Source: a virus (Duplodnaviria; Heunggongvirae; Uroviricota; Caudoviricetes). From it: a DNA stretch of 22,955 bases. The notes under the pieces are model-generated. The model saw nothing but the letters and a program-made list of their open reading frames with translations. It did no database searches and had not been told where the DNA came from. Position 1 is the stretch's first letter, and each line of letters opens with the position of its first letter. Positions 1 through 22,955 of this stretch are shown here, one piece after another. Made by a program: the position numbers and the translations under genes. The stretch is taken from IMG/VR virus record IMGVR_UViG_2541047790_000011. The stretch is one strand, 5' to 3'.

Positions 1-1239
1 ATGAGCAGGGCAATTCATAGACTTAGCGACACTCTTTTACGAAAATTAAGCGGATCACCAACCACAAAAAGCACCTTTTTTAATGATGGTGGCAATCTTA
101 GCGTAAGGCATTCAATCAATGGCCTGTTAACCTGGTATTTCACTTACAGGGCCGGAACTGGTAGGCAGATATCACCGGAACGTCTGAGGCTGGGCAATTA
201 TCCCGATCTGAGCCTGAAAGCTGCCAGGGAAAAAGCGGCACAGTGTCGCGCCTGGCTGGCTGAGGGGAAAAATCCGCGCTATGAACTTAATCATGCTGTA
301 CAGGACGCGTTAGCCCCCGTGACGGTTAAGGAAGCGCTCACTTACTGGCTTGAATCGTACGCAAAGGAAAAGCGCACTGACTACGAATCACTGAAAAGCC
401 GGATCAATAAACACATAATTAGCCAGATTGGCGCTATGCCACTGGAAAAATGCGAGCTACGCCACTGGCTGGCCTGTTTTGACCAGCTTGCTAAGCGTAA
501 TCCGGTATCAGCCGGATTTTTGCTACAGGTATGCAAACAGGCGCTTAAGTACTGCCGAAAACGACGATACGCAATCAGCAACGTTCTTGATGATATGGTC
601 GTAGGTGATGTGGGGAAAAAAGCAGAAATAAGTGAGCGTGTACTGACAAACAAAGAGCTTGGAGAACTACTCCGCGCACTGGATGAAAAAATCTTCCCGC
701 CGTACTACAGCGCCCTAATTCGCCTCCTGATTGTTTTTGGATGCCGTACCACTGAGCTAAGGCGCTCTGAGGTGCAGGAGTGGGATTTTAAGGAAATGCT
801 CTGGACAGTACCGAAGGAGCACAGCAAAACGAAGGTCGCCATATTCAGACCAATACCGGAAAGCATTCTGCCGTTCGTCACGCAGCTGGTGGAGAAGAAC
901 AGGCACACGGGCTTATTGCTTGGAGAACTGAAAGGGCAATCATCCGTAGCAGAGTACGGAAGAACAGCGCACAGACGAATTAATCAAGCCCCCTGGACGT
1001 TACACGATATCCGGCACACATTTACAACCATGCTGAACGATTTAGGCGTGGATCCGCATATTGTCGAGCAGCTTACAGCCCACCAGATGCCAGGGATGCA
1101 ACGCGTCTATAACCACTCCCGTTATCTTGATGCAAAACGTGATGCTCTTAATCTATGGGTAGACCGTCTCGAGCTTCTCCAGAACAATGATGAAAAAGTC
1201 GTTGTTATGACCCCACGAATTTACACCCAAAATTCTTGA
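1..1239 (+). CDS. int: Tyrosine recombinase / integrase, P4 family
   Basis: 412-aa ORF. The N-terminus 'LLTWYFTYRAG...RLRLGNYPDLSLKAAREKA' matches the arm-binding domain pattern of P4-type integrases. Catalytic-core motifs are present: 'FGCRTTEL' (Arg), 'HDIRHTF' (His-x-x-Arg) and 'YNHSRY' (Tyr region). The ORF begins at window base 1. Confidence 0.93.
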   Translation: MSRAIHRLSDTLLRKLSGSPTTKSTFFNDGGNLSVRHSINGLLTWYFTYRAGTGRQISPERLRLGNYPDLSLKAAREKAAQCRAWLAEGKNPRYELNHAVQDALAPVTVKEALTYWLESYAKEKRTDYESLKSRINKHIISQIGAMPLEKCELRHWLACFDQLAKRNPVSAGFLLQVCKQALKYCRKRRYAISNVLDDMVVGDVGKKAEISERVLTNKELGELLRALDEKIFPPYYSALIRLLIVFGCRTTELRRSEVQEWDFKEMLWTVPKEHSKTKVAIFRPIPESILPFVTQLVEKNRHTGLLLGELKGQSSVAEYGRTAHRRINQAPWTLHDIRHTFTTMLNDLGVDPHIVEQLTAHQMPGMQRVYNHSRYLDAKRDALNLWVDRLELLQNNDEKVVVMTPRIYTQNS

Positions 1240-3003: not shown

Positions 3004-3303
3004 ATGAAACTTAAATATTCTGGCTTAACTGCCAGTGGCAAAACTCGCACTAAATTCATGCGCGGTGATATTTACCGCGACCAGTACGGCGGCACGGTAA
3101 TGATTAAGGGCGTGGAGGAACGGCGCGTAACCTACCGTCGTGAAGGCTACGAATATGATTGCGTGATGCCTGTTTATCAGTTCGATCGTGATTTTTCTCT
3201 GGTGCAGGCCGTACCGCGTAACGTGCCCACCAGCAGGGAGAAAGCACGCGCCAATATTCAGGAAATAAAAAAGATGCTTAACGTATTCAGGGGTAAAAAA
3301 TGA
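3004..3303 (+). CDS. Hypothetical protein (99 aa)
   Basis: The ORF's stop overlaps the primase start (ATGA at 3300-3303), indicating translational coupling. Confidence 0.6.
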   Translation: MKLKYSGLTASGKTRTKFMRGDIYRDQYGGTVMIKGVEERRVTYRREGYEYDCVMPVYQFDRDFSLVQAVPRNVPTSREKARANIQEIKKMLNVFRGKK

Positions 3304-5048
3304 AACTGGCACCGAACGTAAAAAAACAGCCACGCGGAATAAAACACAAAGACACAGAGGTAATTATTTTCGCGGGTAGTGATGCCTGGTCGCACGCGAA
3401 ACAATGGCAGGAGCAGGATGGCCCCGCATCCGGCGATAATGTGCCGCCTGTGTGGCTTGGGCCAAATCAGCTTGCCGAACTTGATGCACTGAAAATTGTT
3501 CCGGATGGAAAAAAACGCGTAAGGCTGTACCAGGCCGGAGAACTGGATTTGGTGGAGACCAAAAAGATTGGTCAGAAGCTGGCGGCGGCAGATATTCAGG
3601 ACGCAAATTTTTACCCCGAAGGAATGCACGTCCAGAAGTGTGAAAACTGGCGGCGCTATCTGAATGCTGAGCGTGAAAATATTGCCGCAGGGCTTACCAT
3701 GCCGGAGCAGAAAAATACGCAACTGGCACAAATGGCAGACAGTGAGCGCGCACAGATGCTTGCTGGTCGATTTGATGGCGTTTGTGTGCATCCGGAAAGT
3801 GAAATCGTTCACGTATGGCGCGGCGGGGTATGGTGTCCGGTCAGCACAATGGAACTTAGCCGCGAAATGGTGGCGATCTATTCAGAGCACAGGGCCACTT
3901 TCAGCAAGCGCGTAATCAATAACGCCGTGGAAGCGTTAAAAGTTATTGCCGAACCAATGGGCGAGCCGTCCGGTGATTTGCTGCCGTTTGCCAATGGTGC
4001 GCTTGACCTGAGAACAGGGGAATTTTCCTCTCACCAGCCGGATAACTGGATCACCACACACAACGGCATTGAGTACACGCCGCCAGTACCAGGTGAGAAT
4101 ATCCGCGACAACGCGCCAAACTTTCATAAATGGCTTGATCACGCTGCCGGAAAAGACCCGGGCAAGATGATGCGCATATGTGCCGCGCTATACATGATTA
4201 TGGCGAACCGGTACGACTGGCAGATGTTTATTGAGGCCACCGGAGACGGCGGGAGCGGCAAGAGCACTTTCACGCACATAGCCAGCCTTCTGGCAGGGAA
4301 ACAGAACACCGTAAGCGCTGAGATGACATCACTCGATGATGCTGGTGGGCGTGCGCAGGTTGTCGGAAGTCGGCTTATTGTCCTGGCAGACCAGCCGAAA
4401 TATACAGGCGAAGGCACGGGCATCAAGAAAATCACGGGCGGCGACCCTGTGGAGATTAACCCGAAATATGAAAAGCGATTCACGACCATAATCAGGGCTG
4501 TGGTACTGGCGACCAACAACAACCCGATGATATTCACGGAACGGGCCGGAGGCGTGTCACGTCGTCGCGTGATTTTCCAGTTCGACAACATTGTAAGGGA
4601 GGACGAAAAAGACAAGGATTTGCCGGAGAAGGTCGCGGCTGAAATCCCCGTAATTATACGCCGCTTGCTGGCTAATTTTGCCGACCCTGAAAAGGCACGG
4701 GCTTTACTCCTGGAACAGCGCGACGGTGATGAAGCACTGGCGATAAAGCAACAGACGGATCCGGTTATTGAGTTTTGCCAGTTCCTGAATTTTCTGGAGG
4801 AAGCACGCGGCCTGATGATGGGTGGCGGTGGCGATTCCGTGAAGTACACGACCAGAAACAGCCTTTACCGCGTCTATCTGGCGTTTATGGCATACGCAGG
4901 AAGAAGCAAGCCGCTAAACGTGGCTGAGTTCAGCAAGGCCATGAAGCCAGCGGCAAAAGTTTACGGACATGAATATATTACGCGGAAAGTTAAGGGAGTA
5001 ACGCAGACCAACGCAATTACAACGGATGATTGTGACGCGTTTTTATAA
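3300..5048 (+). CDS. Primase/helicase replication initiator (P4-alpha / D5-like, pri-rep type)
   Basis: 582 aa. Walker A 'EATGDGGSGKSTF' and Walker B-like 'RLIVLADQP' are present. The layout matches the C-terminal domain of phage/plasmid primases. An iteron array follows immediately 3' of the gene. Confidence 0.88.
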   Translation: MKLAPNVKKQPRGIKHKDTEVIIFAGSDAWSHAKQWQEQDGPASGDNVPPVWLGPNQLAELDALKIVPDGKKRVRLYQAGELDLVETKKIGQKLAAADIQDANFYPEGMHVQKCENWRRYLNAERENIAAGLTMPEQKNTQLAQMADSERAQMLAGRFDGVCVHPESEIVHVWRGGVWCPVSTMELSREMVAIYSEHRATFSKRVINNAVEALKVIAEPMGEPSGDLLPFANGALDLRTGEFSSHQPDNWITTHNGIEYTPPVPGENIRDNAPNFHKWLDHAAGKDPGKMMRICAALYMIMANRYDWQMFIEATGDGGSGKSTFTHIASLLAGKQNTVSAEMTSLDDAGGRAQVVGSRLIVLADQPKYTGEGTGIKKITGGDPVEINPKYEKRFTTIIRAVVLATNNNPMIFTERAGGVSRRRVIFQFDNIVREDEKDKDLPEKVAAEIPVIIRRLLANFADPEKARALLLEQRDGDEALAIKQQTDPVIEFCQFLNFLEEARGLMMGGGGDSVKYTTRNSLYRVYLAFMAYAGRSKPLNVAEFSKAMKPAAKVYGHEYITRKVKGVTQTNAITTDDCDAFL

Positions 5049-5335: not shown

Positions 5336-5650
5336 ATGTGCATACATCAAAATCACTTAACAAACATGCCGACCGAAAACATGAATCAGGGGCGACAAAT
5401 GACCAAAATGCGCAGAGACAGAACAGAACCGAAATATCGCGCGTTAGACATGACAGAGCACGCTTTAAAGGTGGCAATCAGAACGATAGACCGCCACGCG
5501 GGGGAAGGATACGCGAAAGCACATCCCGAACTGATAAGCGCATTCATGACCACGGCGGCGGCAAACTTTGCCACGCTGACAGAACGGGAGATTGCCGAAG
5601 CGGAACAGGTAACAACCATCAACGTTAAAACCGGAGAGGTGGAATTATGA
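5336..5650 (+). CDS. Hypothetical protein (104 aa)
   Basis: ORF preceded by the G-rich SD-like GAGGGGGG. Its stop overlaps the ssb start (ATGA at 5647). Several internal ATGs make the start uncertain. Confidence 0.55.
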   Translation: MCIHQNHLTNMPTENMNQGRQMTKMRRDRTEPKYRALDMTEHALKVAIRTIDRHAGEGYAKAHPELISAFMTTAAANFATLTEREIAEAEQVTTINVKTGEVEL

Positions 5651-6072
5651 CGGCACAGATAGCCGCTTACGGGCGGCTGGTGGACGACCCGCAGGTAAAA
5701 CAGACCAGCAAGGGCACACCGATGACGCTGGCGCGTATGGCGGTATCTTTGCCATGCAGCCAGGCACAGGACGGACAGGCGACGTTATGGTTATCGGTCA
5801 TCGCATTTGGCAAACAGGCCGACTTCCTGGCTAAACATCAAAAAGGCGATGTTGCCAGCGTATCCGGCACGATGCAGGTAAGCCAGTGGACCGGACAGAA
5901 CGGAGAAACGCGGCAGGGCTGGCAGGTTATCGCAGACAGCGTGATCAGTGCGCGAACAGCGCGACCGGGCGGCAAAAAAGGCCAGCAGGGGCAGGCCACT
6001 GACGCACTGAACAGGGCAAAACAGCAGACGGGTCAGCACGATGATCCGTACGGGGACAACATACCGTTTTAG
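5647..6072 (+). CDS. ssb: Single-stranded DNA-binding protein
   Basis: 141 aa. The N-terminal half is OB-fold-like ('GRLVDDPQVKQTSKGTPMTLARMAV...WLSVIAFGKQADFLAKHQKGDVASVSGTMQVSQW'). A Gly/Gln-rich linker leads to the acidic tip '...DDPYGDNIPF', comparable to the E. coli SSB tip DDDIPF. Confidence 0.88.
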   Translation: MTAQIAAYGRLVDDPQVKQTSKGTPMTLARMAVSLPCSQAQDGQATLWLSVIAFGKQADFLAKHQKGDVASVSGTMQVSQWTGQNGETRQGWQVIADSVISARTARPGGKKGQQGQATDALNRAKQQTGQHDDPYGDNIPF

Positions 6073-6094
6073 CGACAACAGAGGGGACATTCCA

Positions 6095-6337
6095 GTGACA
6101 TTTGAAGAAGTCCAGCAACATAAAAAGTTTCATGATTTTGATGATCTGGAAACCATGACAGCAAAAAAATATCGCCGTCTGCTTTCTTCCGATGCGTTGT
6201 TTGTTGTGGATCATCATGATTTTCTGCGTAGCTCACTGACCGGGGAAATTTTCGCAACCAACCGTGAGCAGGTGGAAGCGATGATCGAATATCTGTGGAA
6301 AATAAGGCGCAGAATGCGAGATCCCGTGAAACGGTAA
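6095..6337 (+). CDS. Hypothetical protein (80 aa from GTG 6095; alternative ATG at 6041 gives 98 aa)
   Basis: GTG 6095 follows GAGGGGA with a 7-nt spacer and starts just after the ssb stop. ATG 6041 would overlap ssb by 32 nt. Confidence 0.5.
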   Translation: MTFEEVQQHKKFHDFDDLETMTAKKYRRLLSSDALFVVDHHDFLRSSLTGEIFATNREQVEAMIEYLWKIRRRMRDPVKR

Positions 6338-6346
6338 AATAATAAA

Positions 6347-6373
6347 GGCCTGGTAAAATCCAGGCCATTTTTT
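6347..6373. terminator. Bidirectional intrinsic terminator between convergent genes
   Basis: Stem GGCCTGG (6347-6353) pairs with CCAGGCC (6360-6366), with loop TAAAAT. A T-run lies at 6368-6373 on the plus strand. The minus strand reads T-rich after the stem. Confidence 0.7.
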
Positions 6374-6878
6374 ACAGTAAGCCTATTAGGGCACTTGCGC
6401 CAGCCCCAACAATGCTGGCAACGGTACTGTTTTCCAGTAACTGCTTTAATACTGATTTGGCTTGTACATCCCCCGATTTAGCGACTTTTTCAACCAGTTC
6501 AGTGATGCTGATGTTTACCAGCATATGGTTATGCTCACCTATCTGCACTTGATCACCACTAATTGAACCAATGTTAAATGTATTACTTTTAGTTGGCGTC
6601 ATATGTTCATTTCCCGTGATATTTTCAATATAGAGAGTCAACATATTTGGATGATTGGTTCCCTGTCTGCGGGTTCCATTGGGAAGCAACTTCATATCTA
6701 TAATTTTTAGATTTATCTCGTTTTTACCGACACGCTGGATAATGTGTTGACCAATAGTTACTTCCGGTTCATTTGTATATGGAATTAATACCTTGTTTTC
6801 TTTTGCGTTTCTTTTACCTCTGAATGATTCGCCATTAATTATGAAAGTATCAGGGTATACCATTGCGCTTAAATTCAT
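6372..6878 (-). CDS. Hypothetical 168-aa protein with a C-terminal hydrophobic tail; opposite-strand, AT-rich cargo gene of the island
   Basis: Clean ORF with AAAGGA upstream of the ATG. It ends in 'STVASIVGAGASALIGLL', a predicted C-terminal membrane anchor. It is the only large minus-strand gene between the replication and head modules. It is visibly AT-richer than its neighbours (by eye, not computed). Confidence 0.75.
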   Translation of the reverse strand: MNLSAMVYPDTFIINGESFRGKRNAKENKVLIPYTNEPEVTIGQHIIQRVGKNEINLKIIDMKLLPNGTRRQGTNHPNMLTLYIENITGNEHMTPTKSNTFNIGSISGDQVQIGEHNHMLVNISITELVEKVAKSGDVQAKSVLKQLLENSTVASIVGAGASALIGLL

Positions 6879-6944
6879 GATGCGTCCTTTGTTGTAGTCA
6901 GAGACAGCAATAATAGGCCATGGTTTACTTCTTTTGTAAATTAT

Positions 6945-6971
6945 TTGTTCGTGTTCTTTCGTGGTTGTTCG
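6945..6971 (+). promoter_or_regulatory. Three 10-bp-phased direct repeats TTGTTCG / TCTTTCG / TTGTTCG upstream of the head operon
   Basis: Copies start at 6945, 6955 (2 mismatches) and 6965. The same 7-mer occurs three times in the same 10-bp phasing at 14177-14203. Confidence 0.4.
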
Positions 6972-7164
6972 GTCTGACTGACAGGTGTTTACATACTGAT
7001 TTTTATGTATATGTTGTAGCGTGGCACTCAGACGTGAGCCGCCACAATGCCGCCTGACCCCCTGCGCGATGCCGGGTTGATCTGCGAGATGCCGAGAGTG
7101 TCGGGCGGCGCTCCCCCCGTGTTGGTTTCACGTCCTGAATCTTAACCAATACGAGAAAACCTTC

Positions 7165-8334
7165 ATGAAGAAATTAATCGAACTCCGCCAGCAAAAAAAC
7201 GCCCTGAAAAACCAGATGCGATCCCTGCTGGAAAAAGCCGACAGTGAAAACCGTAGTCTGAACGCTGAAGAAGGCAAACAGTTTGATGAACTGCGTGCAA
7301 AAGCTGATGCCCTCGACACAGAAATTTCCCGCCTCGAGTCTGTGGCTGATGAAGAACGCAGCAAGCCAGGAACGGGCATCCAGAAATTATCATCTGATGA
7401 ATTGCGTAACTACATCGTAACCGGAGATGTGCGATCACTGTCCACCAGCACTGACAGCGGCAGGGATGGCGGATATACCGTAATTCCTGAGCTTGATCGC
7501 GAAGTCATGCGCCAGCTACAGGATGACAGTGTTATGCGCGTGATCGCGACCGTGAAGACCGCAAAATCAAATGAGTTTCAGAAACTGGTTTCCACTGGCG
7601 GCGCAACTGTAGGACGAGGCACAGAAGGCAGCGCACGCAGTGAAACCAACACCCCGAAAATTGAACGCGTAACCATCAAGTTGAATCCGATCTACGCCTA
7701 CCCGAAAACCACGCAGGAAATCCTGGATTTTTCAGAGGTGGATATTCTGGGCTGGTTATCCTCCGAAATTGCCGACACGTTCGCCAGCACCGAAGAGGAT
7801 GATTTTGTTAATGGCGACGGTAACGGCAAGCCGAAAGGCTTCATGGCTTACACCCGTGCGGCGACCAGTGACAAAACCCGCGCTTTTGGCACCATTGAAA
7901 AAATAGTAGCGGCAAGTGGAACCGCCATTACAGCGGACGAACTGATCGACATTCTCTACAAGCTGAAAGCGAAATACCGCAAAAATGCCGTATGGGTGAT
8001 GAACTCGGGCACGGCAGGGACACTACAGAAGCTGAAAAATGAGAACGGCGATTATATCTGGCGCGACAGCCTTAAAGAAGGTGCGCCGGATATGTTGCTT
8101 GGTCGTCCTGTTTACTGCCTGGAGTCCATGCCGGACATCGGCGCAGGAAAAGCACCGCTAGCGGTTGGCGATTTCAGTCGTGGTTATTTCATCGTTGATC
8201 ATGTAACAGGGATTCGCACCCGACCGGACAACATTACTGAACCCGGATTCTACAAGGTCCACACGGATAAATATCTGGGCGGTGGTGTGGTGGATTCAAA
8301 CGCCATCAAAATTCTGGAAATGAAAGCTGGCTAG
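7165..8334 (+). CDS. Major capsid protein, HK97 family, with N-terminal coiled-coil scaffolding (delta) domain
   Basis: 389 aa. The N-terminus 'MKKLIELRQQKNALKNQMRSLLEKADSENRSLNAEEGKQFDELRAKADALDTEISRLESV' is delta-domain-like. The rest resembles HK97-family MCPs. A prohead protease and portal follow. Confidence 0.92.
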   Translation: MKKLIELRQQKNALKNQMRSLLEKADSENRSLNAEEGKQFDELRAKADALDTEISRLESVADEERSKPGTGIQKLSSDELRNYIVTGDVRSLSTSTDSGRDGGYTVIPELDREVMRQLQDDSVMRVIATVKTAKSNEFQKLVSTGGATVGRGTEGSARSETNTPKIERVTIKLNPIYAYPKTTQEILDFSEVDILGWLSSEIADTFASTEEDDFVNGDGNGKPKGFMAYTRAATSDKTRAFGTIEKIVAASGTAITADELIDILYKLKAKYRKNAVWVMNSGTAGTLQKLKNENGDYIWRDSLKEGAPDMLLGRPVYCLESMPDIGAGKAPLAVGDFSRGYFIVDHVTGIRTRPDNITEPGFYKVHTDKYLGGGVVDSNAIKILEMKAG

Positions 8335-17246: not shown

Positions 17247-17334
17247 GTTCACTGCCGTACAGGCAGCTTAGAAATTGCCGCGGATCCTGTCTGCCAATAA
17301 TGACAAGTTCACTGCCGTACAGGCAGATAAAATG
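17247..17334 (+). CRISPR. Minimal orphan type I-F CRISPR array (2 repeats, 1 spacer); no cas genes in the window
   Basis: Repeat 1 is 17247-17274, GTTCACTGCCGTACAGGCAGCTTAGAAA, the E. coli/Yersinia I-F repeat. The 32-nt spacer is 17275-17306, TTGCCGCGGATCCTGTCTGCCAATAATGACAA. Repeat 2 is 17307-17334, identical for 20 nt and then degenerate (ATAAAATG), as terminal repeats usually are. Confidence 0.85.
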
Positions 17335-17377: not shown

Positions 17378-17465
17378 TGGCGGTGAGGGGGGGATTCGAA
17401 CCCCCGATACGTTGCCGTATACACACTTTCCAGGCGTGCTCCTTCAGCCACTCGGACACCTCACC
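17378..17465 (-). tRNA. serW: tRNA-Ser (anticodon GGA)
   Basis: The reverse complement reads GGTGAGGTGTCCGAGTGGCTGAAGGAGCACGCCTGGAAAGTG...GGGGGTTCGAATCCCCCCCTCACCGCCA. It is 88 nt with a long variable arm, the anticodon loop CTGGAAA and an encoded CCA end. Confidence 0.95.
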
Positions 17466-17537: not shown

Positions 17538-17830
17538 GAAGAATTTTTATGATAATTATTGTTTGCTCATACTGTAAACAAGTTGTGCAGTATATCTACA
17601 TCTGATGCGCCGCGCGATAAATAAGCCGCAATCCGTGAGATAAATGGACACAGTGCGGCTTTTCAGATACGGAAAAGGAATTACAGATTATCAGTCGTAA
17701 GCAACCCACGCTTACTGGCAAGGATGGTTTACAATGCTGAAAGCGCCTCCCGGCAATACCGCCAATCATCACTCAAACAGAAAAAATTATTGCTCATGGT
17801 TCACTCCGGTAATGAATCGTTTTACAGGCG

Positions 17831-18424
17831 TCATTCGGTCATGGAAAGATTGCTGATTTCGGTAATCCCGGCAATTTCCTCGCTGACGGATTTCAGTTCG
17901 ATTTCCAGCTTGGTGCGTTCGTTGACCAGCGCAGCTACGGTCTTACGGCGGTCTGCCAGTGACGGAAGGTTGTCATTGCCCCACGCCACGCTTTTATCCT
18001 TTTTGAGCGCTTCGGTCAGGCGGGTGGCGACCACATCCGGGAAGAAAAAGCATAACTTACGCATAACCGTCATCCCGACATCAGCCAGGGGGACATTCCC
18101 GCTCAGTCCCACCAGACGGAACAGACCAGAAATATCACCATTCTCATTTTCCAGATTACCCCAGCGTTCGGCGTTCCCTTCACTGCCGGAACCGTTGCAA
18201 AGAGCAAGCTTGAATGACTGATATTCTTCCTGCCCGAATCGCTCAATATATTCAGGAATAAAGGAACAGTAATCATTAAGCGATAATGGCATATCCTGTA
18301 ATGTGGTTATTTCACTGTTAATCTCTCCAATTCGGCGGGAGAGCTTTTCTTTCTGCTCATTCAGGGAGGCAAGATTATTTTTAACGGCGTTCAGTGCTTC
18401 GATAAGGGAAATAACAGGTTTCAT
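17831..18424 (-). CDS. Hypothetical coiled-coil protein (197 aa), possibly scaffold-like
   Basis: ATG 18424 is preceded by GGAG and lies 2 nt after the upstream gene's stop. Heptad-like N- and C-terminal segments are present ('LNAVKNNLASLNEQKEKLSRRIGEINSEITTLQ', 'RRKTVAALVNERTKLEIELKSVSEEIAG'). The ORF-track start at 18493 is an over-extension. Confidence 0.7.
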   Translation of the reverse strand: MKPVISLIEALNAVKNNLASLNEQKEKLSRRIGEINSEITTLQDMPLSLNDYCSFIPEYIERFGQEEYQSFKLALCNGSGSEGNAERWGNLENENGDISGLFRLVGLSGNVPLADVGMTVMRKLCFFFPDVVATRLTEALKKDKSVAWGNDNLPSLADRRKTVAALVNERTKLEIELKSVSEEIAGITEISNLSMTE

Positions 18425-18425
18425 T

Positions 18426-19040
18426 TTAATAACTCCAGATGAAAGGCGTGGTGAGGGCGAGCGCTTCAGAATAGGAGACATTGCAGGCTGCACTTACGTC
18501 CTTTATTAAAAGGTGCTGTGCTGCCCTCTGACTGTCTGCTATGCCGTCAAACTCTGAAAAATGAACGTGTGATTCATTGTGATAAAAGCAAACCGGGTAA
18601 CAGCTTTCCATAAATTCTACCTGCGCCAGTCCCTTTACTGCTGGAGGCTGTGAGCCGAGAAAACCGATATGCTGAAGATACCAGGCACCGATTCCTGCCG
18701 GGTTGTTCGCTTCGCCGGGTCTATAAAATGCCGCAGACACTTTCCTGTAACGCCCTGCGCGTACCAGTCCCAGCAGGGTTTCATCAGGCTTAACCAGCGC
18801 GAAAAGCCTGCCGTTTTTACTTATCAGCCCAGTTGTTTCACCATAAGATGGGCTGTTGCTGGCCGGATGTCCAATACACAGCGGCGCACCATAACCCGCA
18901 CGATGATAGCCGTTATAGGCTGCCGCCATGTTGTCGATATCCTCGTCGGAAAAGGCAATTTCCTGCCCAGCCATCGTGATATGCGTTCCCGCCCGGAATA
19001 TCTCGATAGTTTTCCAGTTGCCAATATCGATATCTTTCAT
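18426..19040 (-). CDS. Phage head maturation protease / scaffold N-domain-like protein (P2 gpO / Mu I-like pattern); function tentative
   Basis: 204 aa. The pattern 'W..IEIFRAGTH....G..I.F...DID.MAAAYN......APL.IGHP....P.YG....L...G.LFA.V.P.....LV..G.YRKVSAAFY.P......G.WYL.HIGFLG..PPAVKGL' resembles phage prohead protease/scaffold families, with candidate His in GHP and Ser in KVSA. This is recalled from memory, not searched. Confidence 0.55.
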   Translation of the reverse strand: MKDIDIGNWKTIEIFRAGTHITMAGQEIAFSDEDIDNMAAAYNGYHRAGYGAPLCIGHPASNSPSYGETTGLISKNGRLFALVKPDETLLGLVRAGRYRKVSAAFYRPGEANNPAGIGAWYLQHIGFLGSQPPAVKGLAQVEFMESCYPVCFYHNESHVHFSEFDGIADSQRAAQHLLIKDVSAACNVSYSEALALTTPFIWSY

Positions 19041-19041
19041 T

Positions 19042-19569
19042 TTAAATTACCCCATATTTCGCATCGCGCTGTATTTTATTTTTCTTGCGTTCGGCGGCTA
19101 TAATCTGATAAATACACTGAATGGAACGCTTGTATTTTTTTGATAGTTCAAAAATAGAGATACCCTGATAAAAATCAGCCAGTATTTTTGAGTTCCTGTC
19201 GAAAGTGTTTTTTGATGCGCCCATAGGGATATATATATTCCCCCTGAAAAATGTATTCCTGAGACATTCAGTGATGGCAGGAGAAAGTTTTTCGGCTTGC
19301 GAACAGAGGTAAGGTATGGTTCCTAATGTCTGCTCAATAGATTCAGTCAGCTCCTGTAGGAAGCGAACTGCCTTAGGTGCTCTTTCTCGGTGTTCAGCCA
19401 TATACCCCTGGCAGCCACCAAGGTTATCAGAGATACCCAACACAATATGATTAGCCGCACTGCAGGACTGTTGCCGTGAATACCCTTTGTTGATCAGAAA
19501 CACTTCTATAGCATCGCCCATTGCCCCCAAAGTATCGGATGAAGCATACAATCCTTCTCTTGTAATCAT
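19042..19569 (-). CDS. Mor/C-family transcriptional activator-like protein
   Basis: 175 aa from ATG 19569, with GAGGT 6 nt upstream. 'IVLGISDNLGGCQGYM' and 'GNIYIPMG' resemble Mu Mor 'VVAICKHLGGGQVYIPRG'. The C-terminal HTH 'ILADFYQGISIFELSKKYKRSIQCIYQIIAAERK' resembles Mor 'IWNDFNGRNVSELTTRYGVTFNTVYKAIRR'. Confidence 0.7.
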   Translation of the reverse strand: MITREGLYASSDTLGAMGDAIEVFLINKGYSRQQSCSAANHIVLGISDNLGGCQGYMAEHRERAPKAVRFLQELTESIEQTLGTIPYLCSQAEKLSPAITECLRNTFFRGNIYIPMGASKNTFDRNSKILADFYQGISIFELSKKYKRSIQCIYQIIAAERKKNKIQRDAKYGVI

Positions 19570-19601
19570 AATCACACCTCGTCAACGATAAATATGCGCA
19601 C

Positions 19602-19624
19602 ATAAAGCCTTTATAAAGCTTTAT
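19602..19624. promoter_or_regulatory. Overlapping dyad and direct repeats (ATAAAGC x2, palindrome CTTTATAAAG) upstream of the Mor-like operon
   Basis: ATAAAGC at 19602 and 19613. The 10-bp palindrome is at 19609-19618. The inverted copy GCTTTAT is at 19618-19624. Confidence 0.3.
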
Positions 19625-19770
19625 GAGGTGCATTACTGGTGTCATTCCATGATGCACACCACCAACAACCAAAAACGCCTTACAGAGCATTTCAATGTGT
19701 GTTATTAATGTGGATTAAGAATATGGTTTTGGGGCGAGAATGTTTTTTAATGTACTTTAGATATGACGAA

Positions 19771-19788
19771 GCCCCTCAAAGGAGGGGC
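19771..19788 (-). terminator. GC-rich hairpin just downstream of the 92-aa gene
   Basis: Stem GCCCCTC/GAGGGGC, loop AAAG. The U-tract on the minus strand is weak, so termination efficiency is uncertain. Confidence 0.4.
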
Positions 19789-19809
19789 GAGGCGGAAAAC
19801 TATTTATAA

Positions 19810-20088
19810 CTATTCCTTACTCTCCTGATCAAGACGATTACCTATCAGGTTAATCATTGCCATTGCATCAGATAGCAGGATACTGTTAACAAGTGCTAAG
19901 GGCGTCTGTGTTGATTTATCATCAACGGCAACAGAAAGTTCATCATTCAGGCGACGAACGGCCTCAAGACGGCTAAAGGCGGCTTCCCATATTTCTGTAC
20001 TCGGGGCATCAGCATTAACAAACAAAACATCGTAAGACGTTCCCTGAGACTCATGAGGACAGGCTATGAAATTAGCAGTAGCTTTCAT
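19810..20088 (-). CDS. Hypothetical protein (92 aa)
   Basis: The ORF's start overlaps the stop of the upstream gene (ATGA at 20085-20088). No family confidently recognised. Confidence 0.65.
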   Translation of the reverse strand: MKATANFIACPHESQGTSYDVLFVNADAPSTEIWEAAFSRLEAVRRLNDELSVAVDDKSTQTPLALVNSILLSDAMAMINLIGNRLDQESKE

Positions 20089-20564
20089 TTTGCAGTCCTC
20101 CGGTTAATTATAAATTTATTATAAATTTCATAACTTGCGGCATTCAGTCCTGGACTGTATTTATCTGCCAGTGAACAGGCAATGAATTCTTCAATCGATT
20201 TAGTCAGTATATCAAGCTCAGTTGTTCCGGAATAACGCAAGGCCACTCGAAATAATTCTCGGCAGTATGTTTTTTTATGGTCAATATTTTGTAACTGCTG
20301 TTGCGGTATATCACGACGTTCAAATATATTAACAAATGCATTAAGCGGGAAGCTATGATTTGCCTGCGGATATTGCTCATAGGAAAACACCACAGTATTA
20401 CCGTTGCATTCTTTAACAATTGCATTCATACCGCTGTTAATTTCAATATACCACTCTCCTATACATGGAGGATTGATAGCTTCGCTCTGTGCCTTGATTA
20501 AAGGTAAGCGGATAGTATCCACTTGGTTTGTTGCAACTGAATCGTTAGACTTGTCGTTAGCCAT
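20085..20564 (-). CDS. Hypothetical protein (159 aa)
   Basis: ATG 20564 is preceded by AGGA at an 8-nt spacing. The ORF-track start at 20582 lacks an SD. No family recognised. Confidence 0.65.
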   Translation of the reverse strand: MANDKSNDSVATNQVDTIRLPLIKAQSEAINPPCIGEWYIEINSGMNAIVKECNGNTVVFSYEQYPQANHSFPLNAFVNIFERRDIPQQQLQNIDHKKTYCRELFRVALRYSGTTELDILTKSIEEFIACSLADKYSPGLNAASYEIYNKFIINRRTAK

Positions 20565-20660
20565 GACTGTTATCCTACACATAACGGTTTTTGGTTAGGC
20601 CATAGCAAGTGCTCGCAACATTTGTTATGGCCGTTTCTTTGGCCCTTTCCCTGTGATAAG

Positions 20661-20701
20661 GTATAGACCTAACAAGTAAACACTAAGCCATAGGTCTATA
20701 C
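20661..20701. promoter_or_regulatory. 11-bp perfect inverted repeat GTATAGACCTA ... TAGGTCTATAC (19-bp spacer) in the divergent promoter region
   Basis: Arms at 20661-20671 and 20691-20701; the right arm abuts ATG 20702. A second 7-bp inverted repeat, GGCCATA/TATGGCC, is at 20598-20604 / 20626-20632. Confidence 0.45.
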
Positions 20702-20893
20702 ATGTCAACTATCTTGAGAGATAAAAGCCAAAAAGGGGCAGGGAAAGCCCCCATGTTTAACGTTAGAATATCGCCAGATTTGAAAGAACAGTTTGAAATA
20801 CAAGCAAAAAAAGAAGGTGTTAGCTTGGGAAACTGGCTCAAGGAACTTGGCAGGGCGGAACTAAAACGTAAGGGGATCGAGCCGAAAGGGTGA
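20702..20893 (+). CDS. Arc/CopG-like ribbon-helix-helix DNA-binding protein (63 aa; more likely 46 aa from ATG 20753)
   Basis: 'MFNVRISPDLKEQFEIQAKKEGVSLGNWLKELGRAEL' matches the Arc/Mnt/CopG beta-alpha-alpha pattern (compare Arc 'MPQFNLRWPREVLDLVRKVAEENGRSVNSEIYQRV'). AGGGA lies 8 nt before ATG 20753. No SD precedes 20702. Confidence 0.7.
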   Translation: MSTILRDKSQKGAGKAPMFNVRISPDLKEQFEIQAKKEGVSLGNWLKELGRAELKRKGIEPKG

Positions 20894-20919
20894 TGTTTTA
20901 GTCTCCCTGTGTTTGATTA

Positions 20920-21757
20920 AAAGCGAAATCGCTTTCACATTTAAAGTTCAAGATAGCCAATGCCATCACCAAAGCGGACAGCGCTGTCCGCTTTTCATCA
21001 GTAAAAACCACATATTTACGCCAAAACGCTCAACGTTGAGCGCTACGTACCCCGGCAAAAGCGCAAGCGTCTGCGCTTTTGGTAACAAGCAATCAGCATT
21101 TAAATGCGGACAACGTTGACCGTTTTGAGGAATCAATGTCGGCTGAGCAAAAACGACAACGTTGTCGTTTTTAAAACGGCAAGCGCTTACCGTTTCAGAT
21201 TATCGAGGCGGTAAGAGTTTACCGTTTGGTGTCAATTATGTTCAATAAGCGAAAACGTTTTCGCATTTTCTCACCTAACGCGGCAAACCTTCTTTGTCCT
21301 AGATGGAAAAACGACAGCGCTGTCGTTTCTAATCCGGGGTTCCAAACCGCTCAGCGCTGAGCGGTTCTGTGGCTTTCTTACAATCCAAATCCGCCAACGT
21401 TGGCAGATTTGCAAATATCACATATGATTGATGGTCCCGAATCACAAATGTCCCAGCGCGGGGATATTTCAAGTAGTTCAATCATTTCATGCGCTGGCAG
21501 TCATCTCCAAAACTGCGAACGCCTGCCCTTTCAGTACAGTTTGGTAATATATATTGGTAAGCTTTACTTGTAGAAATATAAAACTCCAAAAGCGCCAGCG
21601 CTGGCGCTTTGTAAGGCCAGCAATATCATTCCCAGCGCTGGAATACTAAAAGGCGGATTCCTGCATCTTAATTTGAGATGGAATCTCATGGCAATCCAGT
21701 GTTAACGTAGGGTTTTAGCCAGTACTCACGACTTGAATATGCCAGCGCTGGCACATT
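20920..21757. repeat. ORF-free array of at least 16 sequence-variable palindromes with conserved centres AGCGCT or AACGTT and A-tract/T-tract flanks; class unknown
   Basis: Read directly. Perfect palindromes: 20971-20994 (24 bp), 21027-21042 (16), 21149-21172 (24), 21249-21264 (16), 21309-21328 (20), 21345-21366 (22), 21589-21610 (22), 21740-21753 (14). Near-perfect units: 20920, 21056, 21103, 21174, 21209, 21386, 21446, 21632. Confidence 0.85.
21554..21582 (+). promoter_or_regulatory. Candidate sigma70 promoter inside the palindrome array
   Basis: TTGGTA (21554-21559), a 17-bp spacer, TATAAA (21577-21582), in the only strongly AT-rich stretch of the array. It would start transcription at about the 21589 palindrome. 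Confidence 0.3.
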
Positions 21758-21975
21758 TGAAGTCTGGTAACATCAATAATCTAATGACACCTGATGTAAT
21801 TTTGAACCCTGAACTGGAATCAACCCCAAATTTAATGGCAACAGCTATCAGCCAGATTACTGATGAACGTGACCTGCTGAACCAATTACTTGACCAAGCA
21901 CAGATGGCCGATGCATTCGAGCAATTTTCCCGAACGGTTCGGACTTCTAAACTGGCTTTTGTGAAGGAAAACAAG
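21739..21975 (+). pseudogene. 5' fragment (about 79 codons) of an unknown gene, truncated by IS insertion
   Basis: The ORF from ATG 21739 (or TTG 21733) runs straight into the IS terminal inverted repeat at 21976. Its last residues and its stop are IS-derived. Confidence 0.5.
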
Positions 21976-22955
21976 GGCTTTGTTGAATAAATCAGATTTC
22001 GGGTAAGTCTCCCCCGTAGCGGGTTGTGTTTTCAGGCAATACGCACGCTTTCAGGCATACCTGCTTTCGTCATTTTGTTCAGCGCTCGTACCAGGGCCAT
22101 AGCCTCTGCAACCTGACCATCGTAGTCACGCAGTGTCAGTGAACCTCCGAACAGCTGTTTTACCCGGTACATCGCCGTTTCCGCTATCGAGCGACGGTTA
22201 TAATCTGTTGTCCATTTCCACCGCGCATTACTCCCGGTCAGCCGCTGATTCGCAACAGCACGGTTACGGTCTGCATATTCACCGGGCCAGTAACCCGCGC
22301 CTTTTCGGGGCGGGATAAGCGCGCTGATTTTCTTACGCCGCAGTTCATCGTGACAGAGCCGGGTGTCGTAAGCGCCGTCTGCCGATGCTGCCCTGATTTT
22401 TCTGTGAGTCTGCCGGATAAGACCCGGGAAGGCTTCTGAGTCCGTCACATTGTTCAGCGACAGGTCTGCACAGATGATTTCATGTGTTTTGCTGTCAACT
22501 GCCAGATGCAACTTTCGCCATATACGACGGCGTTCTTTGCCGTGTTTTTTGACTTTCCATTCGCCTTCACCAAAGACCTTCAGCCCGGTGGAATCAATCA
22601 CCAGATGCGCGATTTCACCTCGGGTGAACGTTTTGAAACTGACATTAACCGACTTTGCGCGCTTGCTGACACTGGTGTAATCCGGGCAGCGCAACGGAAC
22701 ATTCATCAGTGTAAAAATGGAATCAATAAAACCCTGTGCAGCCCGCAGGGTCAACCTGAACACGCGTTTAATGACCAGAACGGTGGTGATGGCGAGATCA
22801 GAATAGCGCTGAGGTCTTCCCCGTGATGAAGGCGTTGCCGACTCATACCAGGCCTGAATAGCTTCATCATCCAGCCAGAAAGTTATGGAGCCACGGTTGA
22901 TGAGGGCTTTATTGTAGGTGGGCCAGTTGGTGATTTTGAACTTTTGCTTTGCCAC
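21976..22955 (-). mobile_element. IS903/IS102-family insertion sequence (IS5 family), partial; it runs off the window end
   Basis: The terminal inverted repeat GGCTTTGTTGAATAAATC is at 21976-21993. The internal sequence and transposase are recognisably IS903-like. The far inverted repeat, about 80 bp beyond the window, is not visible. Confidence 0.92.
22032..22955 (-). CDS. IS903/IS102 transposase (DDE, 307 aa, GTG start at the window edge)
   Basis: The translation 'MAKQKFKITNWPTYNKALINRGSITFWLDDEAIQAWYESATPSSRGRPQRYSDLAITTVL...' is near-identical, from memory, to the IS903 transposase. Confidence 0.95.
   Translation of the reverse strand: MAKQKFKITNWPTYNKALINRGSITFWLDDEAIQAWYESATPSSRGRPQRYSDLAITTVLVIKRVFRLTLRAAQGFIDSIFTLMNVPLRCPDYTSVSKRAKSVNVSFKTFTRGEIAHLVIDSTGLKVFGEGEWKVKKHGKERRRIWRKLHLAVDSKTHEIICADLSLNNVTDSEAFPGLIRQTHRKIRAASADGAYDTRLCHDELRRKKISALIPPRKGAGYWPGEYADRNRAVANQRLTGSNARWKWTTDYNRRSIAETAMYRVKQLFGGSLTLRDYDGQVAEAMALVRALNKMTKAGMPESVRIA

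Follow-up and report, generated by a model that had tools for sequence, protein, structure and literature searches.

A RHIM-like motif and a conserved hydrophobic C-terminal helix in a candidate conflict effector carried by a capsid-forming phage satellite of Escherichia coli

Pairs of amyloid-signalling proteins have a simple hallmark: adjacent genes carry a common short motif that is unfolded in the monomer (bioRxiv 10.1101/2024.11.07.622273; bioRxiv 10.1101/2020.01.06.895854). In the Bab/Agp system of Escherichia coli ECOR25 this motif is BASS11, 20 amino acids common to two adjacent proteins, and on T5 infection it activates a membrane-targeting abortive-infection effector (bioRxiv 10.1101/2024.11.07.622273). 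Another set of motifs, the RIP homotypic interaction motif (RHIM), the fungal PP motif and the bacterial BASS3 motif, have a G-phi-Q-phi-G signature in common, phi being a hydrophobic residue (Dyrka et al., bioRxiv 10.1101/2020.01.06.895854). Here we analyse a 168-amino acid protein whose gene lies on the minus strand of a 22,955-nucleotide viral record (Caudoviricetes; IMG/VR IMGVR_UViG_2541047790_000011), the whole of which we call the window. The gene is cargo of a capsid-forming phage-inducible chromosomal island (cf-PICI), and its product combines an N-terminal barrel with a RHIM-like motif, two amphipathic helices and a hydrophobic C-terminal helix. An original prediction, made from the DNA letters, had proposed it as a candidate single-gene defence or helper-interference factor with a membrane anchor.

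How does this protein compare with the described systems? By analogy, Bab/Agp appears to be the nearest tested precedent for the mechanism that we propose below. Both are mobile-element cargo in E. coli, both couple a motif of about 20 residues, unfolded in the monomer, to a small set of helices of which a hydrophobic one presumably inserts into the membrane, and both can have an adjacent gene with the same motif, in the cargo family only in sister islands. In Bab/Agp the motif is BASS11 and terminal and the hydrophobic helix is N-terminal, whereas the motif of the cargo protein is RHIM-like and internal and its helix is C-terminal. Bab/Agp also has a large sensor partner; in contrast, the cargo effector stands alone with a variable N-terminal domain of its own, and where there is a partner, it is the effector's own paralog. 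The cargo protein has no match to a Bell/HeLo-type domain in Pfam, and no NLR or TPR-GreA/B-PIN receptor was found for it. In bacterial amyloid-signalling pairs, Bell/BASS–NLR as well as Bab/Agp, the effector ends with the motif and the receptor begins with it, whereas the cargo motif is internal.

With the RHIM, fungal PP and BASS3 motifs (RIPK1–RIPK3 necrosome, HELLP, Bell–NLR) the cargo motif shares a phi-Q-phi-G core followed by Asn, flanking N/G-rich strands and reciprocal profile matches. BASS3 motifs are reported from the ends of proteins encoded by Bell/NLR gene pairs, and specifically from multicellular bacteria (Dyrka et al., bioRxiv 10.1101/2020.01.06.895854), whereas the cargo family has an internal motif, is mostly single-gene and is found on mobile elements of unicellular Gammaproteobacteria and in scattered other phyla. 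HET-S of Podospora anserina, a HeLo domain with a prion-forming domain, resembles the proposed logic in that amyloid templating frees a Gly-rich hydrophobic helix for membrane attack; it differs in having no sequence or domain homology to the cargo protein, the reverse order of parts, and a motif that is a two-repeat beta-solenoid. We tentatively place the family among the amyloid-motif-controlled membrane effectors, from which it would differ in motif family, motif position and single-polypeptide design.

The open reading frame (ORF) is clearly a true conserved gene under purifying selection. Its RefSeq product, WP_001053662.1, matches PHROG 5789 (listed as function unknown) over its full length (E = 8.5e-85), and full-length homologs with 93–46% identity occur in Enterobacterales, Pseudomonas, Shewanella, Xanthomonas and others. 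The homologs form 98 clusters of nearly constant length, and their comparison gives a nonsynonymous divergence (dN) of 0.29–0.46 with synonymous sites saturated; these facts and a confident N-terminal fold are the grounds for calling the gene genuine. No housekeeping or morphogenetic homology was found, in keeping with the earlier impression of a protein of no recognised family.

The protein had been divided into a soluble domain of about 150 residues and a terminal anchor. An AlphaFold2 model, built with a 39-sequence alignment, gives a different plan: a small barrel (residues 1–92), a conserved motif modelled with low confidence (93–123) and helices (124–150) before the tail (Table 1). We presume that the barrel is a specificity or sensor domain. 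The low-confidence stretch, residues 93–120, contains NTFNIGSISGDQVQIGEHNHMLVNISI, that is, three phi-(N/Q)-phi-(G/S) units. Here the predicted local distance difference test (pLDDT) score is below 50 at residues 93–108, 110–112 and 114–120, with means of 45–48 for the 10-residue blocks over 91–120. The N/Q/G-rich motif spans 25 residues, follows the pattern FNIG...VQIG..N..VNIS and is more conserved than the barrel (3.36 versus 3.0 bits per column). Of the family's five invariant residues, three (I103, Q112 and G114) fall within it, and G108 and N117 are near-invariant, N117 being at least 90% conserved in the family alignments. Four short helices follow across residues 125–167 (pLDDT 75–88); the two amphipathic ones (124–150) are kept across relatives of this C-terminal part, with A140 invariant and K141 near-invariant (alignment A2).

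The tail, STVASIVGAGASALIGLL, is the best-conserved block of the family (3.62 bits). The predicted hydrophobic helix is thus present and conserved, although its reading as a membrane anchor fared less well. It has 17 hydrophobic residues with a Kyte–Doolittle mean of 1.91 and a summed Hessa value of +1.4 kcal/mol (+4.3 for 19 residues), and WP_001053662.1 has no signal peptide. Because of this length, the moderate hydropathy and the positive Hessa values, a constitutive transmembrane role appears marginal from the sequence, and a conditionally inserting helix therefore looks likelier than a classical anchor. A C-terminal sorting signal (GlyGly-CTERM and similar) was also considered and set aside from the sequence alone, the protein having neither a signal peptide nor basic residues clustered behind the tail.

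What kind of motif does the protein carry? The only Pfam match of the window protein is to RHIM (PF12721), at 15.4 bits for the full protein and 16.6 bits for the C-terminal part, where the gathering cut-off is 20 bits. When the same part is taken from 63 non-redundant relatives, RHIM is the top Pfam family for 19 of them (E < 0.1; best E = 3.6e-6), and one relative, P0243 ('NSQGIQIGDNNVQHI'), clears the cut-off with 25.2 bits. In the other direction, a profile of this part searched against 177,635 distinct Protein Data Bank (PDB) sequences places RIPK1 RHIM fibril peptides first (E = 0.045), and RIPK1 or RIPK3 make up 7 of the top 13 matches. The RIPK1 peptide scores 16.4 bits on this profile, while the best of 5,000 composition-preserving shuffles reaches at most 11.1 bits (0/5000 above). 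Matches in both search directions together with the shuffle control argue that the resemblance is specific and not compositional, though as a sequence similarity it covers few residues and its statistics are modest. The window protein has the core tetrad (I/V)-Q-(I/V/L)-G with its following Asn as V111-Q112-I113-G114-E-H-N117, in which Q112 and G114 are invariant, and the whole G-phi-Q-phi-G signature is found in the relatives P0243, P0244, P0236 and P0245. Since the window protein scores below the cut-off and lacks the first Gly of that signature, we describe its motif as RHIM-like and stop short of placing the protein in the RHIM family.

A separate observation is that NCBI names P0282 (WP_023596881.1, Pandoraea pnomenusa), which falls in the 90% cluster of P0243, 'RIP homotypic interaction motif-containing protein'. 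A few family members thus already bear the RHIM label in public databases, undiscussed.

The motif, helices and tail behave as a reusable module. A profile search (hmmsearch) of 1.84 billion representative proteins returned 265 relatives, many of which match only profile positions ~90–168. In other bacteria the module sits behind at least 20 N-terminal sequence clusters that BLAST does not connect, including winged-helix-like, zinc-ribbon-like and long helical domains, as weak Pfam hints have it. The cluster P0095–P0097 aligns with the barrel, invariant G43 and G51 included, and is for this reason probably a strongly diverged barrel and not an unrelated domain. The module forms the exact C-terminus in 118 of 188 proteins and ends at most nine residues from the C-terminus in all but one, and 139 of 187 module tails have a four-element small-xxx-small zipper. 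Outside the Gammaproteobacteria, the family is found in metagenome-assembled genomes of Thermodesulfobacteriota, Kiritimatiellales, Sulfurimonas, Helicobacteraceae and Flavobacteriaceae. The invariant RHIM-like motif is the most informative feature of the protein, and the original prediction had missed both it and the sharing of its module among many unrelated N-domains; with them a switch that works by homotypic self-assembly becomes a likelier mechanism than an effector that is simply anchored.

Two minor observations concern the module. EAD10 (PF19954), an effector-associated domain of conflict systems, gives matches to the helical part in one or two members that are too weak to interpret (E = 0.02–0.05; alignments A1 and A4). 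In Azomonas agilis (L035:5716-6508; such labels denote loci fetched for comparison) a family member is split into two overlapping ORFs, one with barrel and motif and the other with helices and tail, apparently a frameshifted pseudogene.

Some islands carry the motif twice. A scan with a hidden Markov model (HMM) of the module over every locus fetched found a second motif-bearing ORF, lacking the hydrophobic tail. In E. coli BA92 (L016) and Enterobacter soli (L020) this ORF directly precedes the family member, and in Vreelandella (L025) it lies 1.5 kb ahead of it. With the BA92 paralog as query, 21 clusters of 201–266 amino acids were returned. Paralogs of 236–256 amino acids are present in BA92, Enterobacter soli and four metagenomic or genomic islands, and in all contexts examined for this search (L040, L041/L042 and L043/L044) the paralog lies directly upstream of the 168/169-amino acid member, in the cf-PICI slot facing the capsid gene. 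The paralog has the motif 'IFNIxTVNSxYxQFGTNNNI', with pLDDT below 50, helices that align as homologs of the module, and an N-domain that is a generic helical bundle. In place of the tail most have charged sequence, two are intermediate (P0263 and P0264) and one is intact (P0266). Given homologous motif and helices and a mostly charged tail, the upstream partner is, judged from these alignments, a paralog that lost its membrane helix.

The host element was identified from its gene content. The E. coli SaT040 chromosome is 100% identical to the window over 5600-7200, and we use its RefSeq annotation for the island. The criteria for cf-PICIs list an integrase, a regulator, a primase, capsid, prohead protease, portal, connector, HNH, and small and large terminase subunits (TerS and TerL), and tail and holin genes must be absent (de Sousa et al. 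2023). The SaT040 island has this full set (Table 1), and its RefSeq annotation contains no tail, holin or lysis genes. The element is therefore a cf-PICI and not a P4-like satellite; the original prediction had named PICIs and P4-like satellites together.

Within this island the cargo gene lies between the replication and capsid modules, and the sequence around it shows the outline of a cassette. In a three-way alignment of the window with an empty-slot island (L014, strain 181.1) and an island with alternative cargo (L013, strain 06-00048), the left-hand flanks are nearly the same as far as the terminator hairpin, and the right-hand flanks from ~6925 ('TTTTGTAAATTATTTG...') onwards. The interval in between is 0 bp long, or is filled by the present cassette or by an unrelated gene, a 157-amino acid minus-strand ORF (WP_001293446.1, L013:1787-2260 of E. 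coli 06-00048) that has no Pfam or PADLOC match. Among close islands the slot is empty (L002 and L014), occupied by the other gene (L013), by the cargo gene alone, or by the cargo gene with its paralog (L016 and L040–L043). The slot is thus a true variable cargo site at which cassettes are present, absent or replaced, and the expectation of gene turnover in the same slot of related islands is borne out.

We surveyed 5,426 complete E. coli genomes. The neighbouring SSB segment is present in 1,611 of these, a query from the small hypothetical gene across the slot to the capsid gene matches 164, and 49–51 have the cargo gene at ≥80% coverage. About 25 further genomes match just the 3′ part of the gene, which encodes the C-terminal module, at ~70–79% identity; the two examined, L016 and L017, are diverged full-length alleles in the same slot. 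Many survey matches have a footprint ~555 bp shorter, as expected of an empty slot, and emptiness was confirmed directly for L002 and L014.

Base composition and orientation also set the gene apart, as had been noted. Its GC content is 0.381, or 0.355 at third codon positions (GC3), against 0.508 for the rest of the island and a GC3 of 0.549 for the capsid gene. The sole other minus-strand coding sequence (CDS) annotated in the island is a 59-amino acid YlcI/YnfO gene. The terminator hairpin scores as terminator-like on both strands, again as predicted.

Homologs of the gene recur in similar settings. A homolog with a strongly diverged N-domain (P0096, L005) occupies the same slot in a metagenomic cf-PICI. 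Another same-slot homolog is in the last ~10 kb of a 106-kb record deposited as a phage (Klebsiella phage P12620-1, PQ569648.1; L003), adjoining unannotated genes sized like capsid, protease and portal genes, and by these gene sizes we read this region as a cf-PICI. By gene match, homologs are also encoded on four Klebsiella plasmid records of 16–692 kb, two of which are 16–17 kb long (CP018459.1 and NZ_CP069874.1). L003 and the 16–17 kb records may represent satellite DNA that was packaged, circular or co-assembled. A further family member lies at the cargo end of a P2-like Pseudomonas prophage, adjoining a weak HEPN_RiboL-PSP match (E ≤ 0.001) and a peptidase S8 gene, and the Xanthomonas and Shewanella members lie within runs of small unknown genes. 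One module relative adjoins a Dam methylase gene and a HigBA-like toxin–antitoxin pair with a weak Gp49 match. In Escherichia phage vB_EcoM-689R6 (L004:5001-5507), a 28%-identical relative occupies the place of a lambdoid moron, with Rz on one side and the HNH/terminase genes on the other; its barrel is retained, its version of the motif reads 'FQAGNDN' and its tail is amphipathic. Besides the paralog, no conserved partner was seen across the neighbourhoods examined.

Variable hotspots that carry defence cargo are described for P4-like satellites, P2 prophages and PICIs (Rousset et al. 2022, PMC9122126), and reportedly also by Fillol-Salom et al. 2022. The cargo slot resembles these in the presence, absence or replacement of genes at a fixed position, in foreign GC content, in its own terminator and in the opposite orientation of the gene. 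It differs in lying between the replication and capsid modules and in having occupants without a PADLOC match: none of the slot occupants seen matches any PADLOC model, nor does the paralog partner. Among 39 module relatives PADLOC gave only three weak matches, to the candidate-system models PDC-M39B, M14B and M15B (E = 0.006–0.05), each in one member. The literature searched by accession, by PHROG identifier and for RHIM with phage or prophage held no description of the family, so that no defence library, curated family or paper searched describes it.

The slot polymorphism, the homologs in prophage cargo and moron positions and the foreign GC content together argue for a mobile conflict context. 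What we observe is a three-part plan, a conserved module that follows exchangeable N-domains, a signature like that of RHIM, pairs of paralogs and a polymorphic cassette, and we tentatively read the cargo protein as a self-assembling, membrane-acting conflict effector. The cassette would encode a self-contained effector in three parts: the variable barrel, the RHIM-like motif, and a helical hairpin with the zipper helix. The N-domain would recognise a trigger, most plausibly a phage component or a consequence of phage infection. Judging from the resemblance to RHIM and from the motif-sharing gene pairs, recognition may then drive homotypic, probably cross-beta (amyloid-like) stacking through the motif. 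Stacking would align the weakly hydrophobic zipper helices, which would be shielded by the hairpin at rest, and cooperative insertion of the aligned helices into the inner membrane might then dissipate its potential. Infection would be aborted or a competitor excluded, to the benefit of the satellite and the host clone. In sister islands the tail-degenerate upstream paralog could act as a separate sensor or regulator that signals to the effector through the shared motif. The specifically amyloid form of this mechanism we hold to be doubtful. We are similarly sceptical of the wider proposition that a RHIM-type amyloid switch, known up to now from necroptosis in animals, from cell death in fungi and from Bell/NLR pairs in filamentous bacteria, also works in unicellular enterobacteria, as an all-in-one protein on phage satellites and prophages with exchangeable sensor domains and, sometimes, a tail-less paralog as templating partner.

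Several points weigh against this proposal. The RHIM score of the window protein (15.4–16.6 bits) is below the cut-off of 20, the PDB E-values are marginal (0.045), and the G-phi-Q-phi-G signature is incomplete: in G108-D-Q-V-Q112-I-G114 the first Gly stands four residues before Q112 and not two. The motif is internal (residues 100–123 of 168, with 45 residues after it), whereas it is terminal in all described amyloid-signalling proteins. No second motif-bearing ORF was found in the window by regular expression or HMM in any of the six frames, and the cargo gene is solo. Low pLDDT is no proof of a conditional amyloid, as the segment could be a strand with a fold only in an ordinary oligomer. 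With its 17 residues and weak hydrophobicity, the tail does not allow transmembrane status to be assigned with confidence, and the distant homolog in the lambdoid phage has a non-hydrophobic tail. The fold match of the N-domain is generic. Finally, the window protein has no match in PADLOC (PADLOC-DB v2) or NCBIfam, so the suggested role in defence or interference is favoured by the variable slot, the hydrophobic helix and the lack of housekeeping homology and finds no link to a known defence family.

The main rival to a self-assembling effector is a constitutively membrane-associated accessory protein, such as one acting in superinfection exclusion or injection block. Its tail would do no more than hold a cytoplasmic barrel at the inner membrane, and its motif would be a linker or a strand for ordinary oligomerisation; neither an amyloid switch nor cell killing would be involved. 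Prophages commonly use small membrane proteins as exclusion factors, and the conserved C-terminal helix without a signal peptide, the cargo and moron positions in satellites and prophages, and an N-domain whose variation could track different phages would all suit such a role. We nevertheless consider it unlikely, since the tail is only 17 residues long with a positive Hessa value and the conserved core is the motif, which matches RHIM in both search directions, and not the barrel. Paralogs that lost the tail and kept the motif, beside members with the tail, argue moreover that the motif itself serves as an interaction interface. Less likely is a selfish toxin or addiction cassette, in which a small membrane-active toxin keeps the island stable or kills any cell from which it is lost, and the tail-less paralog, where present, is a dominant-negative antitoxin. 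Many small membrane toxins have a glycine-zipper hydrophobic segment, as this tail does, and the two-gene arrangement with a tail-degenerate paralog would be apt; one module relative also adjoins a HigBA-like toxin–antitoxin pair (a weak Gp49 match and dnstrm_HI1420). That said, the gene is solo in the window and in most E. coli copies surveyed, with no antitoxin candidate nearby, the slot is often empty in near-identical islands, so that loss is tolerated, and the large variety of N-domains is unexpected for a simple toxin. We therefore think addiction improbable.

Could the protein be a counter-defence decoy that co-assembles with a host amyloid-signalling immune protein and neutralises it? 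Herpesvirus RHIM proteins block RIPK3 signalling in this way in animals, through hetero-amyloids, an amyloid-signalling abortive-infection system is known in E. coli, and the present RHIM-like motif travels on mobile elements. The E. coli system that is known relies on BASS11, however, and not on a RHIM-like motif, no host protein with the motif lies near any copy in the loci scanned except its own paralog, and the conserved membrane tail would be left without a role, all of which makes a decoy very improbable. Slighter still is the prospect of helper interference by morphogenetic mimicry, with the barrel resembling a head-closure or stopper protein and capping helper heads or connectors so that tails are left for satellite capsids. 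PilZ and split-barrel flavoproteins score equally well in the fold comparison, Foldseek against viral models (BFVD) gave nothing convincing for the barrel, homologs occur also in prophages and non-satellite loci, and presence of the gene does not track that of Phage_HCP. As a primary explanation we rejected it, given an hhalign probability of 0.2% between the family and the satellites' own Phage_HCP proteins and a full-length profile search of PDB sequences that returned only CsrA (E = 0.11). PilZ-like cyclic di-GMP binding was likewise rejected on reading the alignment, where RxxxR and D/NxSxxG do not occur in the right form.

If the motif of the proposed effector does drive amyloid-like assembly, E. 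coli would offer a minimal, genetically tractable model of RHIM-type signalling, with one 168-amino acid protein and natural two-gene versions of it. RHIM-like immune cell-death logic would then extend from multicellular organisms and filamentous bacteria to enterobacteria and phage satellites. The slot between the replication and capsid modules of cf-PICIs would be a new cargo hotspot in which to mine conflict genes, and the at least 20 N-terminal clusters fused to the module would be a ready set of candidate phage sensors. Should the motif fail to assemble, a widespread and uncharacterised mobile-element family (PHROG 5789) with a clear domain plan has still been defined.

Table 1. Features of the cargo gene, its cassette and the surrounding island. 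Positions are those of the window unless a locus is given.
Feature	Position	Strand	Basis and remarks
Cargo CDS, 168 amino acids, ATG start	6372..6878	-	ORF and translation; RefSeq WP_001053662.1 'hypothetical protein'; PHROG 5789
N-terminal small beta-barrel, residues 1–92	6603..6878	-	AlphaFold2, pLDDT ~90; most variable folded part
RHIM-like motif TFNIGSISGDQVQIGEHNHMLVNI, residues 100–123, three phi-(N/Q)-phi-(G/S) units	6510..6581	-	Conservation; pLDDT <50; Pfam RHIM below cut-off
Two amphipathic helices SITELVEKVAKSGDVQAKSVLKQLLEN, residues 124–150	6429..6509	-	AlphaFold2 helices 125–135 and 138–149, pLDDT 75–88
Terminal hydrophobic Gly/Ala/Ser-zipper helix STVASIVGAGASALIGLL, residues 151–168	6375..6428	-	Zipper A154-G158-S162-G166
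Exchangeable cargo cassette, approximate bounds	~6367..6925		Alignment of window, empty slot and alternative cargo; terminator hairpin marks left edge
Intrinsic terminator hairpin, 7-bp, GC-rich, just 3′ of cargo stop, common to the upstream plus-strand gene	6347..6366	both	Terminator scan
Candidate Shine–Dalgarno (SD) site AAGGAC	6884-6889	-	Pattern search; inside cassette
Candidate -10 TATTAT	6910-6915	-	Pattern search; inside cassette
Candidate -35 TTTACA	6935-6940	-	Pattern search; in conserved backbone; 19-nt spacer to -10
Two-gene cassette (paralog and 168/169-amino acid member)	L016:2476-3779		E. coli BA92
Island borders: cspD/yljB on one side, clpS on the other			RefSeq annotation, SaT040 locus
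Tyrosine integrase	1-1239		RefSeq annotation, SaT040 locus
Helix-turn-helix regulator, Icd-like fragments, DUF4222 gene	between integrase and primase		RefSeq annotation
Primase	3300-5048		RefSeq annotation
SSB	5647-6072		RefSeq annotation
Small hypothetical gene, upstream plus-strand neighbour of the cargo gene	6089-6337	+	RefSeq annotation
Major capsid protein	7165-8334		RefSeq annotation
HK97-type prohead protease, portal, head-tail connector, HNH, P27-type TerS, TerL	after capsid gene		RefSeq annotation

The cargo gene had been credited with its own upstream region, which is true in part. The candidate -10 and SD sites lie within the cassette, while the remainder, including the candidate -35, is largely shared backbone. 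A standard scan called no minus-strand promoter for the gene, the 19-nt spacer of the candidate exceeding the 18 nt that the scan allows, and this promoter is a weak candidate only.

Elsewhere in the island, the intergenic region 6990-7160 upstream of the capsid gene is near-invariant among islands that differ in slot content. It has a GC-rich stretch at ~7030-7120, and the sole promoter-like site called is TTTACA-16-TATGTT on the plus strand (6988-7015). The region may control the packaging operon or serve as a site for packaging. In the regulatory region (1870-2780), RefSeq leaves out a 302-amino acid ORF (1870-2778) and annotates instead Icd-like fragments, one of them a pseudogene, and the 59-amino acid YlcI/YnfO gene on the minus strand; the region looks partly decayed.

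Outside the island, downstream of clpA, a single CRISPR-DR4 repeat (Rfam RF01317, 50.1 bits) lies on the plus strand at 17247-17274, adjoining a minus-strand tRNA-Ser gene (17381-17465); Tandem Repeats Finder (TRF) detected no CRISPR array around it. The type I-F CRISPR locus of E. coli sits between clpA and infA, and the repeat may be its orphan remnant. Beyond clpA and tRNA-Ser, at ~17800-22955, the GC content falls to ~0.40 and RefSeq annotates minus-strand hypothetical genes and a protein of the Mor transcription-activator family, suggesting that a second mobile element, Mu-like in type, has its edge here at the tRNA-Ser site.

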